A DNA stretch of 64,000 nt, taken from the NCBI GenBank assembly GCA_021790215.1, contig JAJYIG010000001.1, forward strand, positions 194 through 64,193, written 5' to 3'. Source of the DNA: a bacterium. Its GTDB lineage: Bacteria > Patescibacteriota > Microgenomatia > UBA8517. Shown here one piece after another: positions 14,056-28,188 of this stretch (the first letter of the stretch is position 1; the number at the start of each line of letters is the position of its first letter). The position numbers and the translations under genes are program-made. Under the pieces are notes generated by a model that made no database searches, was not told the origin of the DNA, and saw only the letters and a program-made list of their open reading frames with translations.

Positions 14056-15278
14056 ATTTTTTCTCTTCTAGAAAGCATTTCAATATTCTTCTTATTTTTA
14101 AGTAGATGTTCAATTACCCCTTCAAGAAATCTTGCTCCCTTAAAAAGGATAATCTCTCCGCCTCTTAGGTTGCTTTTAAGATATTCCAAAACCTCTTTCG
14201 GACCGAGGAACGCCACCGTACTATCCGGTAAAAGCGGTTTGGTGTATTGAGTAACCCTGGGCCCCATTAAAATTATCCTATCAAACTTAAAATTTAAGAT
14301 CAGTTTTGCAAGATTCTCATGTTCCTCCTTCTCTTCTTTTCCTTGTTCAAGCATGTCTCCCAAGACTACCCACTTCTTCCTGGCTTTTATCTTGCCAAAC
14401 ATGCCAACAACAGCAGACATTGAATCCATATTTGCATTGTAAGTACTATCTACTATGGTAGTACCTTTAATTCCTTCAAAAAGTGAGTTTCGCCCCGGGG
14501 GCAAAATAAATTTTCCAAACGTTACATCAAACTCAATACCTAAGTAATTTGTAATTTGCCTTGCCATAAGTATCGAGGTAGATATCTCACCTGGCATTAA
14601 ATATCTAAAACTCACAACAAAATCATCAAATTTAAATTCCGTTTTTCCCAAACTAATTGAGTAATTTTTCAAACTATGTTTAGAGGAAACAGAAACAACA
14701 TTTGCCATTGTCCTTCCAAGCTCGCTGGCCTCATACAAATCGTCATCATTAATTATGACGAGGTTTCGGGTGCGTTCAATAAAATAACCAAATTCATATG
14801 CAATTGCGTTTTCAATTCTTGAAAATTTGTTCTTTCCTACCAGCCTATCAAAGTTCATACTGTGAGTTCTTGATACGTTGGTCCAAGCAGTTACCTCAGG
14901 TTTTAGAAGAGAACTAATGAAATTTCCTTCATAGGGTCTGTCGCAGTCCGCTTCAACAATATATATCTTTTCTCTCGGAACTGGTTTGAAAAGACTAAAG
15001 ATAGGAAGAAAAACTATCTTGGGCCATTCAATAAATGTGAGGTCCTTTCTATGAATTCCCAAAATATCAAAGGGGATTCCGAACGAACTATTGGCCTCGT
15101 GTGTGTATTTTGCCTTATCTCCAATCTGGGACTCCACCAAATGAAGTAGTGTGGTCTTTCCACTCGATCCTGTAATGACAATTATTCTCGGATTCCAAAA
15201 TTTAAGTCTGAGAGAAGCAAAAAAACGAAAATAAAAGGCAAGTGGAAAGTAAAAAAGCCTTTTAATTCTTATGTACAT
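14022..15278 (-). CDS. murF: Mur ligase, MurF-like (UDP-MurNAc-tripeptide:D-Ala-D-Ala ligase) lacking the usual N-terminal domain
   Basis: P-loop IVITGSSGKTT at residue about 33, IVDSTYNANMDSMSAVVG, and the C-terminal domain GDMLEQG (MurF GDMLELG). Confidence 0.65.
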   Translation of the reverse strand: MYIRIKRLFYFPLAFYFRFFASLRLKFWNPRIIVITGSSGKTTLLHLVESQIGDKAKYTHEANSSFGIPFDILGIHRKDLTFIEWPKIVFLPIFSLFKPVPREKIYIVEADCDRPYEGNFISSLLKPEVTAWTNVSRTHSMNFDRLVGKNKFSRIENAIAYEFGYFIERTRNLVIINDDDLYEASELGRTMANVVSVSSKHSLKNYSISLGKTEFKFDDFVVSFRYLMPGEISTSILMARQITNYLGIEFDVTFGKFILPPGRNSLFEGIKGTTIVDSTYNANMDSMSAVVGMFGKIKARKKWVVLGDMLEQGKEEKEEHENLAKLILNFKFDRIILMGPRVTQYTKPLLPDSTVAFLGPKEVLEYLKSNLRGGEIILFKGARFLEGVIEHLLKNKKNIEMLSRREKIWEIRRKKWGL

Positions 15279-23997: not shown

Positions 23998-25713
23998 TTA
24001 ACTTGATGGCTGAACTCCCAGATAAGGAAATAAGTCTCTAGCGATTGAAAACCACAACGGCGCCGCCGTCTCGGATGCCCAAGGAGACGCCTGAGGAGAA
24101 TCAAGAGTGACAAGCATTACAAACTTTGGATGGTCAGCGGGCGCAAACCCTATAAACGAATGGTTTGTGTTAACTGGATCGTAATGCCCGGCAACAGGAA
24201 TTTGTGCCGTACCGGTTTTCCCGGCTACATTATCAAAACCAGAAATCTTGCACCACTTGGCCTCACCTAAATTTGCTGCCTGAACCATCATTTGAGCAGC
24301 CTCCTGAGCAGCTTTTTCGCTAATAATTCTCACGGGTGGGTCAGTATTTACAGGTTGCTGCCATCCGTCTCCCCGGATTGAATCAACAACGCGCGGAGTC
24401 ACTAAATAGCCTCCATTTGCAATCACTGAAATTGCTCTCACCATTTCTATTCCTGTAACAGCTACCCCCTGTCCGAAACTCGCAGTATCAAGGTCGACAT
24501 TACTCCAACTCCCCTTCTTCCTTAATGGCGGTGCAGCCTCTCCCTGCAAATCTATACCCGTTGTTTTTCCAATCCCAAAACTATTAAGATAGTTATAAAG
24601 CTTATCTGCCCCCAGCTTTTGTCCGACAAAACTCATTCCAACATTATCAGAGTTTATAATAACTTCTGTCATTGTTGAGTTTGATCTGTATTTATTATCC
24701 CAAGTCCTTATCTGAAAGCCATCAACATTAATTGGACCGGAGCAGATATCGCACTCTGTGTCGGGAGTTACGAGTCCTGCATCAATGGCCGAAGCCATAA
24801 CAATTGGTTTAAATATCGATCCTGGTTCAAAAGAGTCCGATATCACGGTATTTTTAAACACCTCGTTGCTGTATTGAGAATAGTTGCTTGGGTCAAAACT
24901 TGGTAAACTCGCCATTGCCATAATTTTACCTGTATACGGATCCATTATTGTTACACTTCCACCCTTTGCCTGATATTTTTGAATTCCATTTGCAAGTTCC
25001 GTTTCAGCCAAAATTTGAATCCTTTTGTCGACATTTGTCAGAAGATCCACACCCGGAACTGCTGACACCTCCATTGTTCCACCCGAAAGAATAGGCGCAC
25101 CTAAAGCATTCTTCTCCCCACCCATAAATCCAGGTTTACCGCTTAACGGAAGGTCGTAATATCCCTCAAGCCCAAAATATCCCACATCATGGCCACTTGA
25201 ATCTTTACCCACAAAACCCAGGATATGTGCAGCAGAAGACGCCTCAGGATAATACGAATCCTCCTCCGGATCAAAACCTATCCCCCGGATTCCCAAAGCA
25301 TCAATATTCCTTTTGGTAGGATCATCCATCTTACCACCCAAAGAAACCCAACTTAGATTACTTTTGGAAAGAATTCCCTGCAATTTATCGACCTCGTCCA
25401 TTAGCTCCACCTTATCGGTCGGGTCTTTAACAAAAAAGGGTGCCAGCCTGTTTGCAACGGCCTGGACGGAATCAGTCAACATCTTAGGATTTGCCCACGG
25501 AAGCCAGCCTTGAGTTCTTACAACCCAATATGTTCCGTCGGAGGCGAGAATATTTCCTCTTGGAGCGCTAGTTACTTTAGAAGAACTATATTGTGCCTGG
25601 GCATCTTGAGAGAGGACAGAACCTTTTATAATTTGCCAGTAAAAAAGTCTGACGATAACGGCAGCAAAAAGAATTAAAAAAAAGATAGAGAGTAATCGAA
25701 TTTTTACACCCAT
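23998..25713 (-). CDS. ftsI: Class B penicillin-binding protein (FtsI-type transpeptidase)
   Basis: N-terminal TM. SxxK (PGSIFKP), SxN (INSDNVG) and KTG (AGKTGTA) transpeptidase motifs. Sits at the dcw position of ftsI. Confidence 0.9.
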   Translation of the reverse strand: MGVKIRLLSIFFLILFAAVIVRLFYWQIIKGSVLSQDAQAQYSSSKVTSAPRGNILASDGTYWVVRTQGWLPWANPKMLTDSVQAVANRLAPFFVKDPTDKVELMDEVDKLQGILSKSNLSWVSLGGKMDDPTKRNIDALGIRGIGFDPEEDSYYPEASSAAHILGFVGKDSSGHDVGYFGLEGYYDLPLSGKPGFMGGEKNALGAPILSGGTMEVSAVPGVDLLTNVDKRIQILAETELANGIQKYQAKGGSVTIMDPYTGKIMAMASLPSFDPSNYSQYSNEVFKNTVISDSFEPGSIFKPIVMASAIDAGLVTPDTECDICSGPINVDGFQIRTWDNKYRSNSTMTEVIINSDNVGMSFVGQKLGADKLYNYLNSFGIGKTTGIDLQGEAAPPLRKKGSWSNVDLDTASFGQGVAVTGIEMVRAISVIANGGYLVTPRVVDSIRGDGWQQPVNTDPPVRIISEKAAQEAAQMMVQAANLGEAKWCKISGFDNVAGKTGTAQIPVAGHYDPVNTNHSFIGFAPADHPKFVMLVTLDSPQASPWASETAAPLWFSIARDLFPYLGVQPSS

Positions 25714-25722
25714 TTTTCCTTG

Positions 25723-26019
25723 CTATGGAAGTTTAGCAACAGCTTCGCCGGCTGAGGTATAAACCAAAGCCGTCGGCTTAACATATCCCATTGCCACACT
25801 TTCCTCCTGAAGTTGACTGACAGAAAGAGATTTAACCAAAGAATCCTGCAAGTACCCTTTCTGATCTAGAAGCTGTACTTCTTCTTTTTGTAAAGCCGCA
25901 AACTCAACTCCTGAAGTTGCTGTTTCAATTGTAACAAAAACCGATGAGACAACCATAACCGCTAAAGTTATCACTAAAATAACTCCTCTCGGACTTTTTA
26001 AATCAATTATTTTTTTCAT
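25723..26019 (-). CDS. FtsL-like small bitopic division protein
   Basis: 98 aa. Single TM (GVILVITLAVMVVSSVFVTI), then a short extracytoplasmic coiled segment. Lies between rsmH and ftsI as ftsL does in canonical dcw clusters. Confidence 0.5.
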   Translation of the reverse strand: MKKIIDLKSPRGVILVITLAVMVVSSVFVTIETATSGVEFAALQKEEVQLLDQKGYLQDSLVKSLSVSQLQEESVAMGYVKPTALVYTSAGEAVAKLP

Positions 26020-26032
26020 ATTTTGGATAATC

Positions 26033-27052
26033 TTATTTCTTCTCTAAAATTCTCATCTTTGCGCTTCTCGCCCTGGGATTTCCTTCAAGTTCATCCGCGC
26101 TTGCTATATCAAATCCTGAGACACCTTTTCCTGTCATAAAATCTTTAACAATTTTGTCCTCCCCGGAATGAAAACTGATAACAACCAGTCTTCCTCCTAC
26201 CTCAAGCAAGTTATAAGCTTTTGGTAAAACCTCCTTTAAATTTTCAAGCTCGCTATTGACAGCTATCCTTAAAGCCAAAAATGGTAATGTTGCTTCGTTC
26301 AACCCGTGTTTGCCGGTTCTTAATCCGTCACAAATCTCAAGCATGTCATTGACCTTCAATATAGGACTTCTTTTCCTAAACTCCGTAACCTTTTTAGAAA
26401 TCCACTTGGCCGGACCAGGTTCAATAGTTACTTCAAAAAGATTCCTAAGTTGATCCTCTCTAAGAATATTTAAAAGGTCAGATGCTTTTACCCCCTGGGC
26501 CTCAGGATTAATCCGCATGTCCAATGGCGCTTCCCGGTTGGCAAAAGAAAACCCTCTCTCCAAATCTTTGAGGTGAAGATTACTCACCCCAAGGTCAAGT
26601 AAAATCCCCGAAACTTTCTCAAAACCGTTTTCCTTTGCAATCCTGTCTATGTCGGTAAAATTCCCATTAACCAGACTGTATTTATCTCTATCTAGGATCT
26701 CTTTCCCGATTCTCTTACGAGACATCTCAACCATTTTAGGATCGAGATCAATTCCCAAAACCTCTCCCCCAAGTTTCAAAATCTCCAGGGTGTGTCCCCC
26801 TGTTCCGAGAGTAGCGTCAATATATTTGCAAGCTTTTTTAAGGTGCTTTGACCTGCTACAGATGTGCAAGGCACTTATTACCTGATCAACCATTACCGAT
26901 TCATGGTATTTACCAGGGCCTTGGCTGGCCAAGCTTTGCTTATTTTCCATCTCTTTTTGCCAATCTTTCGATATAACTCGCTGCCTCTTTTGCAACCTCA
27001 GCTTCCTTCTTTTCCCAAAGCTCTTTGTTCCAAATCTCAATCCTATCCCCAA
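26033..27052 (-). CDS. rsmH: 16S rRNA m4C1402 methyltransferase RsmH (MraW)
   Basis: DATLGTGGHTLEIL SAM motif. Probable true start is Met35 (MENKQSL...) at 26950, leaving a 10-nt overlap with mraZ. Confidence 0.88.
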   Translation of the reverse strand: MGIGLRFGTKSFGKRRKLRLQKRQRVISKDWQKEMENKQSLASQGPGKYHESVMVDQVISALHICSRSKHLKKACKYIDATLGTGGHTLEILKLGGEVLGIDLDPKMVEMSRKRIGKEILDRDKYSLVNGNFTDIDRIAKENGFEKVSGILLDLGVSNLHLKDLERGFSFANREAPLDMRINPEAQGVKASDLLNILREDQLRNLFEVTIEPGPAKWISKKVTEFRKRSPILKVNDMLEICDGLRTGKHGLNEATLPFLALRIAVNSELENLKEVLPKAYNLLEVGGRLVVISFHSGEDKIVKDFMTGKGVSGFDIASADELEGNPRARSAKMRILEKK

Positions 27053-27377
27053 CCCCTAAGAAGTAAACCTGCTCACCAAGACCGGCGTATACCACTAATC
27101 TGTCAGGTAAAACTATTCTCCCCTGGTCATCAATATCAACCTCGTAGGCTGAAGCAAAAATAAAATGTTCAGTCTCTCTAATCGGTTCGATGATCATCCT
27201 CTCTCCTCCTGTCAATCTATCTAAAAGTGCACTCCAAGAATCATTACCCACCAAAACCAAACAGTTCTCGTACCATTTGGCTAAAATTGCCGATTGTCCT
27301 ATCTTTTGGCGGAATACTGAAGGGATCGATGTTCGCTTTCCCGAAGTTACACTGACAAGATATGTACCTACAAACAT
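26940..27377 (-). CDS. mraZ: Transcriptional regulator MraZ
   Basis: 145 aa, first gene of the dcw cluster, two MraZ/SpoVT-AbrB-like half domains (MFVGTYLVSVTSGKRTSIPSVFRQKIG ... GRIVLPDRL). Confidence 0.8.
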   Translation of the reverse strand: MFVGTYLVSVTSGKRTSIPSVFRQKIGQSAILAKWYENCLVLVGNDSWSALLDRLTGGERMIIEPIRETEHFIFASAYEVDIDDQGRIVLPDRLVVYAGLGEQVYFLGVGDRIEIWNKELWEKKEAEVAKEAASYIERLAKRDGK

Positions 27378-27398
27378 TTCTTTTCATCTAGGCAGATG

Positions 27399-27434
27399 GG
27401 TGAGAAAATACCATTTCTCACCATTATCAACCAT
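27399..27434 (-). promoter_or_regulatory. Candidate MraZ operator: three direct repeats (WWATGGT on the coding strand) at exact 10-bp spacing, plus a 9-bp inverted repeat GGTGAGAAA-N6-TTTCTCACC
   Basis: ACCAT on the plus strand at 27410, 27420 and 27430. The inverted repeat spans 27399-27422. The site is 22-57 nt upstream of the mraZ ATG. Confidence 0.45.
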
Positions 27435-27461
27435 AATGATATTATTTTCACAAAATGTCAA
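27433..27461 (-). promoter_or_regulatory. Candidate dcw promoter (-35 TTGACA, 17-nt spacer, -10 CATTAT on the minus strand)
   Basis: Reverse complement of 27456-27461 is a perfect TTGACA; the best -10 at 17-nt spacing is CATTAT (27433-27438). Confidence 0.35.
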
Positions 27462-27513
27462 CCCCTATATTTCACGAAAAAGCGGATTCGGACTTATCTT
27501 TAAAAAATGAGAC

Positions 27514-28188
27514 TCATTGCGAAGTTACACTTCCAGCATGAGGTTTACCATCGGAAGCAAAAATAGAATAGCCATTAGAGGTAATTACTGTAGTAGAAGC
27601 GTCAGGCGCAGCAAAACTCTGCATAGTTACAAAGTAAACATTTTTGGCAAGCTTGTCCAAATTATATTTAAACTTTCCGTCGGCAGATGAAAGTGATGTC
27701 GTATTTGATTGTAAAGTAAATTCAGATGTAAGTTTACCTATAAGTTTGCCACCGGAATCTCGGAAAGTAATAGTAATCGTTCCCTGATTCACACCGTCGT
27801 CAAATCGATAATTCCCGGAAGATTCTGATCCCAAAAGAAGTACTCGATCGATATCCCCACTCGTAAGATGAACTGTTCCCGGAACACCCTGCTGACCGCC
27901 ATCAGTAGTATTATAAACAAGTTCGTAATCCATACTGGCAGCACCAGGAATGTTTATCTTTTGCACCTTAAGGTCCAGTAGATGTCCCAAAGAATTGGGA
28001 ATTTTAGGGTCCGTTGTAGGAATTAACGAGACTACCGGCCACTCACTCTGGGGAAGGACAGGAGCATTAGCAATCTGGTCGGTTGGTGTTGAAGATGGAG
28101 TTTTTGAGCCAGATGTAATAAGAAGTGCTGCAACAACAACTATCAAGACTCCAACCCCGGCAATTATAAATGGTAGGAACTTTTTCAT
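27514..28188 (-). CDS. Hypothetical exported/membrane-anchored protein (N-terminal TM or signal anchor, Ser/Thr-rich linker)
   Basis: 224 aa: MKKFLPFIIAGVGVLIVVVAALLITSGSKTPSSTPT..., no recognisable catalytic motif. Confidence 0.5.
   Translation of the reverse strand: MKKFLPFIIAGVGVLIVVVAALLITSGSKTPSSTPTDQIANAPVLPQSEWPVVSLIPTTDPKIPNSLGHLLDLKVQKINIPGAASMDYELVYNTTDGGQQGVPGTVHLTSGDIDRVLLLGSESSGNYRFDDGVNQGTITITFRDSGGKLIGKLTSEFTLQSNTTSLSSADGKFKYNLDKLAKNVYFVTMQSFAAPDASTTVITSNGYSIFASDGKPHAGSVTSQ

Follow-up and report, generated by a model that had tools for sequence, protein, structure and literature searches.

A likely MraZ operator in the dcw promoter of a Woesebacteria genome and a conserved leader RNA that shares its sequence

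Directly upstream of mraZ in a genome of the Woesebacteria (Patescibacteria), three ATGGT boxes are repeated in the same direction on the minus strand with a period of exactly 10 bp, and these boxes are likely to form the operator at which MraZ autoregulates the promoter of the dcw operon (mraZ-rsmH-ftsL-ftsI...). This reading is based on sequence anatomy, conservation, exclusivity, covariation and protein homology, from which we infer MraZ binding, repression, the start site of transcription and the roles of two hairpins in the leader of the transcript. The window, as we call the whole stretch of 64,000 nucleotides that was analysed, carries mraZ at 26940..27377 (minus strand, start codon ATG at 27377-27375), which encodes a protein of 145 aa and presumed operator-binding repressor (Pfam MraZ, E 4e-22). 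It is followed by rsmH/mraW as the second gene of the operon (26033..26950, start approximate; Pfam Methyltransf_5, E 2.5e-69), by a small ftsL-like ORF of 98 aa as a downstream dcw gene (25723-26019) and by ftsI/PBP (23998-25713; Transpeptidase, E 1.4e-70, and PBP_dimer). All four genes lie on the same minus strand, and their order matches that of the relatives. A further ORF of 224 aa (27514-28188, minus strand) is located between the glycyl-tRNA synthetase gene and the mraZ promoter; it has a N-terminal hydrophobic segment and no Pfam match, and a counterpart of 223 aa is found at the same place in the closest relatives.

The Patescibacteria are almost all uncultured, their division is believed to be linked to life as episymbionts and, to our knowledge, almost nothing is known of how they regulate transcription. 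For this group the locus offers a concrete and testable regulator-operator pair at the cell-division operon. An MraZ operator is a known kind of element, expected by the specialist upstream of mraZ, so that current understanding is not overturned; here a probable member of this kind is found in a phylum where none was previously described, and our literature search found no paper linking MraZ with Patescibacteria. The most original part is the conserved two-hairpin leader RNA, likewise previously undescribed, which shares sequence with the operator.

The triple box and its conservation

The promoter of mraZ and the dcw operon was predicted by reading the sequence and by a consensus scan. Its -35 hexamer TTGACA (27456..27461, minus strand) is separated by a 17-nt spacer from the -10 hexamer CATTAT (27433..27438), and both together match the sigma-70 consensus at 10 of 12 positions. 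From the position of the -10, adding 6-8 nt, transcription is predicted to start at 27425..27427 on the minus strand. Relative to this start, box 1 (27430..27434) would lie at about -8 to -4, box 2 (27420..27424) at about +3 to +7 and box 3 (27410..27414) at about +13 to +17, and the first two bases of box 1, AT, are at the same time the last two bases of CATTAT. The boxes would therefore span approximately -8 to +17, which is the position of a repressor. The sequence-only reading had described three ATGGT repeats at 10-bp phasing over a TTGACA promoter, and its coordinates and description are correct when the minus strand is read. The array ATGGT-N5-ATGGT-N5-ATGGT occurs a single time in the 64-kb window, even if one mismatch is allowed, and in none of 100 dinucleotide shuffles. 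The looser RTGG-N6 triple is also single in the window, yet it is present in 8 of 100 shuffles, and therefore the weight rests on the exact pentamer triple and above all on its conservation.

Orthologous promoters were collected by a profile scan with one genome per species, which gave 80 loci. The first 39 of them (L001-L039) are nearly all from Woesebacteria/Microgenomates, with MraZ identities of 38-81%, and the remaining ones come from other Microgenomates, WWE3, Saccharibacteria and Firmicutes. Another 80 loci, with flanks of up to 10 kb, came from a metagenome scan. Conservation was counted in 38 distinct Woesebacteria promoters anchored on box 1 (x, position relative to this anchor). 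Every Woesebacteria promoter retrieved has the same order of elements, which is TTGACA, a GTGAAA within the spacer, an A/T-rich -10 ending in AT and the three boxes. The hexamer TTGACA is near-invariant (35-37 of 38 per position), and the -10 has the -11 A in 30 and the -7 T in all 38 promoters. Box 1, with its TGG at x = 1-3, reads ATGG in 40/40 promoters and starts 21 nt after TTGACA in 37 of these 40, with a distance of 20 or 22 nt in the rest. The TGG of box 2 (x = 11-13) is present in 38/38; box 3 (x = 21-23) has TG in 38/38 and TGG in 37/38, and the base preceding each box is A in 36-37 of 38, with 37 for boxes 2 and 3. Not a single insertion or deletion between the boxes was found in the 38 unique orthologues, while the inter-box positions and all sequence upstream of about -50 vary freely. 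More than 70 metagenomic loci likewise have the phased [A/G]TGG triple at the fixed distance of 21 nt from TTGACA. The closest relatives, with 91% MraZ identity, have flanks that can no longer be aligned, and keep promoter, boxes and leader with substitutions in the spacers. Such conservation amid diverged flanks is a classical phylogenetic footprint. Non-conservation of the repeats among related mraZ upstream regions had been named beforehand as an observation that would speak against an operator; the phased boxes are in fact kept in all Woesebacteria promoters retrieved. In more distant Woesebacteria boxes 2 and 3 read GTGG, and in these lineages box 1 is still ATGG, as is expected if box 1 must double as the end of the -10.

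In the DNA that was sampled, the triple is furthermore restricted to the mraZ promoter. We scanned 885 kb of Woesebacteria-type DNA, consisting of the window, the 39 genome loci and the metagenome loci; this sample is centred on the dcw region and covers mostly 10 kb around mraZ. The RTGG-N6 triple was found 100 times at mraZ promoters and once more at the mraZ promoter of locus L027, which has a long leader. Away from mraZ promoters it was found zero times in these 885 kb of related DNA, mostly from the 10 kb around mraZ; shuffles give 0.2 occurrences. This mirrors the situation in Bacillus subtilis and Mycoplasma genitalium, where the triple is present only at Pmra.

Proven MraZ sites and the reading loop of the protein

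MraZ sites are well described in several bacteria. In the cryo-EM complex of M. genitalium the boxes GTG(G/T) are each followed by six spacer bases, giving a 10-bp period; most bacteria have three boxes and some mycoplasmas four, and the transcription start of M. genitalium falls inside a box (PMC12957436). The protein binds cooperatively and represses in a box-dependent manner, with Lys13, Arg15 and Arg86 contacting TG(T/G); single alanine mutants of Lys13 abolish binding, and the G in front of TG is also within reach of Lys13 (PMC12957436). In B. subtilis three GTGG[A/T]G repeats (MBRs) with 4-nt spacers are needed for repression and are unique in the genome (bioRxiv 10.1101/2022.02.09.479790), and the boxes of Mollicutes are AAAGTG[T/G] in three to four copies (PMC8475190). 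In M. gallisepticum MraZ is described as raising FtsZ, according to work cited in PMC8475190, and hence the sign of regulation is not universal. In Escherichia coli K-12 (NC_000913.3), which we read directly, GTGGG is present three times with a 10-bp period, the first box lying 31 nt after a TTGACA.

Similar to these proven sites, the element of the window has three copies with a 10-bp period, the same orientation, a TGG core and, usually, a preceding A, and its boxes would overlap or abut the predicted promoter and start. The core TGG is the trinucleotide that is contacted by MraZ in the cryo-EM complex. In contrast to the GTG(G/T) of known sites, the first base is A in all three boxes. The sequence-only reading had noted that the motif differs from that of E. 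coli, given there as TGGGN, which is appropriate for the A in place of G at the first position, but not for the TGG core, which is common to GTGGG and GTGG[A/T]G; a literature search for TGGGN returned nothing relevant. A second difference is the distance from the -35, since box 1 of the window starts 21 nt after TTGACA instead of 31 nt as in E. coli. The boxes are thus one helical turn nearer to the -35, whereby box 1 merges with the -10.

The MraZ protein of the window has 239 database relatives, the best of which are 80-91% identical, and the few relatives with a named source are labelled Patescibacteria/Microgenomates. The match to the Pfam family MraZ (PF02381, paired SpoVT/AbrB-like domains) covers residues 73-132; with phmmer, residues 1-126 align to the Mycoplasma MraZ structures 1n0e and 9qlr (E 1e-13 to 1e-11), and homology thus extends to both half-domains. 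The N-terminal loop aligns without gaps to the structures of M. genitalium and M. pneumoniae, and the residues of the reading loop were placed by sequence alignment to the solved MraZ-DNA complex. As in proven MraZ systems, the protein has retained Arg15 and Arg86: neither Arg15 nor the second DxxxR motif (D83...R87, in which Arg87 corresponds to Arg86) varies among 29 relatives. In place of DxKxR, the first motif has TSGKR. Unlike in proven MraZ proteins, the conserved Asp11, which positions Arg15, is therefore replaced by Thr and the base-contacting Lys13 by Gly, with a Lys at position 14. Binding of the operator by an MraZ with a TSGKR motif is assumed here. The mechanism that we propose is as follows. 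Three A-A/G-T-G-G-T boxes one helical turn apart would lie on the same face of the DNA, where an MraZ oligomer would bind them cooperatively with one subunit per box, and the TGG core would be read by Arg15 and Arg86. With the -10 and the start site covered by MraZ, RNA polymerase could form no open complex, and mraZ and the division genes downstream of it would be under negative feedback.

The loss of Lys13 and Asp11 and the fact that the link between boxes and MraZ is drawn from sequence could also point to an operator for another regulator than MraZ, and the conserved GTGAAA copies described below show that further factors may act at this promoter. We consider such a regulator very unlikely, because the boxes agree with the proven MraZ sites of four species in core, period, copy number, position and exclusivity, mraZ follows the site immediately in every case, and the first base of the boxes varies with the reading loop of MraZ across lineages. 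This last point emerged when box type and MraZ loop were compared across 79 distinct promoters. A loop with Lys13 goes along with GTGG-type boxes in 21 cases and with ATGG-type boxes in 1, without any tie, whereas a loop without Lys13 goes along with ATGG-type boxes in 34 cases and with GTGG-type boxes in 4, with one tie; these four exceptions, together with the tie, all belong to a single clade that has an SDARR/GDGRR loop and GTGG boxes. As Lys13 can reach the G preceding TG, it is mechanistically plausible that the loss of Lys13 accompanied the change from G to A, but the association is confounded by shared ancestry and is to be taken as a lead. The variation between ATGG and GTGG that tracks Lys13 could help to define the MraZ recognition code opened by the 2026 cryo-EM structure. 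Altogether, comparative evidence from orthologous promoters, exclusivity and the core of proven boxes supports the interpretation as an MraZ operator that had been put forward from the letters of the window.

The structured leader of the mraZ transcript

Downstream of the predicted start, the DNA contains a perfect 9-bp inverted repeat on the minus strand, GGTGAGAAA (27422-27414) and TTTCTCACC (27407-27399). It folds as the sequence-only reading had predicted, into hairpin 1 (27399..27422, minus strand) with the stem GGUGAGAAA/UUUCUCACC and the loop UGGUAU, placing box 2 in the 5' arm and box 3 in the loop. Hairpin 1 begins 3-5 nt from the predicted 5' end of the transcript and is followed by hairpin 2, and the leader of the window with both hairpins folds with -16.8 kcal/mol (z = -3.2). 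RNAalifold on MAFFT alignments of the leaders gave fragments only, since these alignments are not structure-aware; it was replaced by constrained folding of each sequence against shuffles and by counting of pairs in an ungapped alignment of 27 sequences. When boxes 2 and 3 were kept fixed and only the sequence after the boxes was shuffled, the native downstream arm folded much better with boxes 2-3 (z < -2, with a mean of -2.85) in 27 of the 34 lineages. In the ungapped alignment of 27 'long-type' leaders, 92% of the cells are paired versus 29-49% in slid controls, and the covariation score was reached by none of 500 shuffles. The spacer that separates box 2 from box 3 contributes three pairs, and all three have compensatory double changes in this alignment. 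The T and G of box 3 are invariant, and their partners alternate between A and G and between C and U, respectively, so that the pairing, as U-A/U-G and G-C/G-U, is preserved only as RNA.

This conservation at the RNA level, together with the inclusion of boxes 2 and 3 in the structure, raises the question whether the boxes could be explained by the structure of the 5' UTR alone, being the 5' arm of hairpin 1 without any protein that reads the DNA. We regard this as highly improbable. On the side of the boxes the stem stays constant, the changes falling in the 3' arm and including U-G and G-U partners, and the register of the hairpin varies by lineage, with box 3 in the loop (window, L001, L005) or paired (L002-L011), whereas the boxes do not move. 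Neither the 10-bp period nor the invariant TGG is needed for a hairpin. Moreover, all three boxes are kept in lineages without a leader hairpin (e.g., L030, L032, L034, L147), as well as in those with leaders of 14-20 nt, which have no hairpin either, and box 1 lies upstream of the predicted start, outside the predicted transcript and never in the hairpin; therefore, RNA structure cannot explain the boxes. The proposal that the inverted repeat could form a 5' UTR hairpin instead of an operator is consequently upheld as far as the hairpin is concerned, but the hairpin replaces nothing and coexists with the operator. The DNA would be constrained as the MraZ operator, and the 3' arm appears to have evolved to pair with the boxes: once transcribed, boxes 2 and 3 would pair with the downstream arm, and the resulting stem-loop would begin 3-5 nt from the 5' end.

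In the textbook arrangement, an mRNA is protected against 5'-end-dependent decay by a stem at just this distance of 3-5 nt, with the ompA leader hairpin as an example of a 5'-terminal stabilising stem-loop of a bacterial mRNA. Similar to stem-loops of the ompA type, hairpin 1 is stable, begins no further than about 3-5 nt from the predicted 5' end and has a 3' arm that is conserved by pairing and not by sequence, and we infer from its position that it most likely protects the mRNA from 5'-end-dependent decay. It differs from the ompA type in that its 5' arm doubles as the putative DNA operator.

Hairpin 2 was found by folding at 27385..27398 (minus strand), with the stem CAUCU/AGAUG and the loop motif CUGCC(C/U)A (27389-27395). 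Out of 40 Woesebacteria leaders, 39 have the heptamer CTGCCCA unchanged, while the window has CTGCCTA (27395-27389). The distance from the hairpin to the mraZ start codon downstream of it is 8-31 nt, with 12 as the commonest value. By contrast to the constant loop, the stem sequences vary (CATC/GATG, GAAC/GTTC, AGCC/GGCT, GTCC/GGAC, GTGA/TCAC and others; 14 inner stems). At least 4 pairs enclose TGCC in 34 of 38 unique sequences, against 10.6 +/- 2.4 (maximum 17) when the flanks are shuffled. In the enlarged set, which includes L085-L157, 82 of 96 leaders contain hairpin 2, and beyond the Woesebacteria it is present in one WWE3 genome (L051). The heptamer CTGCCYA occurs 18 times in the window (9.6 expected; 0 of 100 shuffles reach 18), but the copies besides the one in the mraZ leader are not in hairpins and are mostly coding; no further CUGCC(C/U)A hairpins were found in the window, and in the related loci the matches to CUGCC(C/U)A elsewhere are scattered and mostly coding as well. 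A partner in cis, complementary to the CUGCCCA loop, was searched for in the mraZ/rsmH mRNA and rejected, as none is position-conserved.

The constant loop, the covarying stem and the adjoining start codon in a leader without SD sequence suggest that hairpin 2 is a protein-binding translational operator or a processing site; it would probably bind a factor that modulates translation or processing. The target of RsmH in 16S rRNA is the first C of G1401-C1402-C1403-C1404, and the GCCC of the loop resembles G1401-C1404, by which RsmH could regulate its own operon through substrate mimicry; with a likeness of only 4-5 nt, RsmH is an improbable candidate for this factor. A structured RNA upstream of mraW/mraZ is also known from Actinobacteria as the mraW RNA motif, a family of Rfam. 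The leader of the window, unlike this motif, has no Rfam match: at E <= 10 it gave only a spurious match to IS128 (14.5 bits versus a gathering score of 80), and the whole window gave no match at gathering thresholds. The CUGCCCA hairpin, for its part, is confined to Woesebacteria and one WWE3 genome. What is shared with the mraW RNA motif, and with the processing of mraZ mRNA by RNase III in Corynebacterium glutamicum (known here from a title in the reference list of PMC12957436), is a structured RNA in the 5' part of the mraZ-rsmH transcript, and both are precedents for post-transcriptional control of this operon. In these reduced genomes, the pair of conserved leader hairpins points to an additional, post-transcriptional level in the control of dcw expression. 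A broader proposal, for which we have only tentative confidence and which may well turn out differently, is that Woesebacteria/Microgenomates retuned the MraZ code, with loss of Lys13 and Asp11 and a change from GTGG to ATGG, and added a post-transcriptional module to dcw. This module would consist of the 5'-terminal hairpin made from boxes 2-3 and of the CUGCCCA-loop hairpin near the SD-less start codon, the loop serving as the binding site for a trans-acting factor.

GTGAAA elements, start regions and other lineages

Besides the boxes, the promoter contains a GTGAAA inside the -35/-10 spacer (27446..27451, minus strand) and a GTGAA further upstream (27471..27475, minus strand), 14 nt before the -35. 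The spacer element is conserved in the orthologues, where it is found 10-11 nt after the start of TTGACA in 39 of 40 promoters, its central AA being invariant in 38 promoters. In the majority of Woesebacteria promoters the upstream GTGAA precedes TTGACA by 12-13 nt, and frequently there is another copy 9 nt above it, at 21 nt from TTGACA. In the window, in L001-L039 and in L085-L157, the GTGAA(A) copies and the -35 form a roughly helically phased series, which could serve another regulator or be UP-like. Neither the patterns of GTGAA pairs nor the combination of GTGAA with TTGAC are enriched elsewhere in the window. A general role of GTGAAA in the promoters of this genome was discarded, since the other TTGAC-N-GTGAA sites of the window are all within coding sequence.

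The consensus scan gave a second promoter candidate, GTGAAA-17-GATAAT, 10 bp downstream of TTGACA-17-CATTAT, which together with the A/T-rich bases before each box could suggest that the boxes are overlapping -10-like elements (xxTAAT|GG) of tandem promoters or starts; but this has next to no probability, since the -11 A of the would-be second -10 is A in only 12 of 38 promoters (x = 7), by which GTGAAA is also ruled out as the -35 of a second, phased promoter, the invariant TGG is outside the -10 consensus, and the homologous boxes of E. coli and Firmicutes, which read GTGG, could not serve as -10 elements. Box 1 taken by itself could be conserved purely as a -10 followed by a G-rich discriminator.

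A SD-like tetramer is present upstream of 8 of 50 long ORFs in the window. Hexamers of the -10-like type TAnnnT are enriched 6-9 nt before the start codons of about 50 long ORFs (15 versus roughly 5 expected), whose start regions include those at 15278, 32078, 35786, 40242 and 51124 on the minus strand. These features suggest that many genes of this genome are leaderless or nearly so, and the structured mraZ leader of 50 nt is therefore unusual; our literature search returned nothing relevant on leaderless mRNAs in Patescibacteria. In ten loci of other Microgenomates (L054, L056, L059, L060, L065, L069-L072, L077) the ATGGT boxes reach the mraZ start itself (for example TTGACA...AATAATGGTTCTATATGGTG, at ~1501). 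There the mraZ mRNA appears to be leaderless, and the last box would contain the ATG. In the WWE3 loci L042, L047 and L051, up to five ATGG/ATGT units with 10-11-bp spacing are present upstream of 1501, an array that begins right after the -35 and is longer than that of the Woesebacteria. The leader sequence CTGCCCAAGAACTT of three Woesebacteria (L032, L037, L038) is nearly identical to CTGCCCAAGAAACTT (~1553) in the mraZ coding sequence of the same three WWE3 loci, where it encodes LPKKL in the DNA-binding loop region of the WWE3 MraZ; this likeness could be a coincidence or the trace of an old partial duplication.
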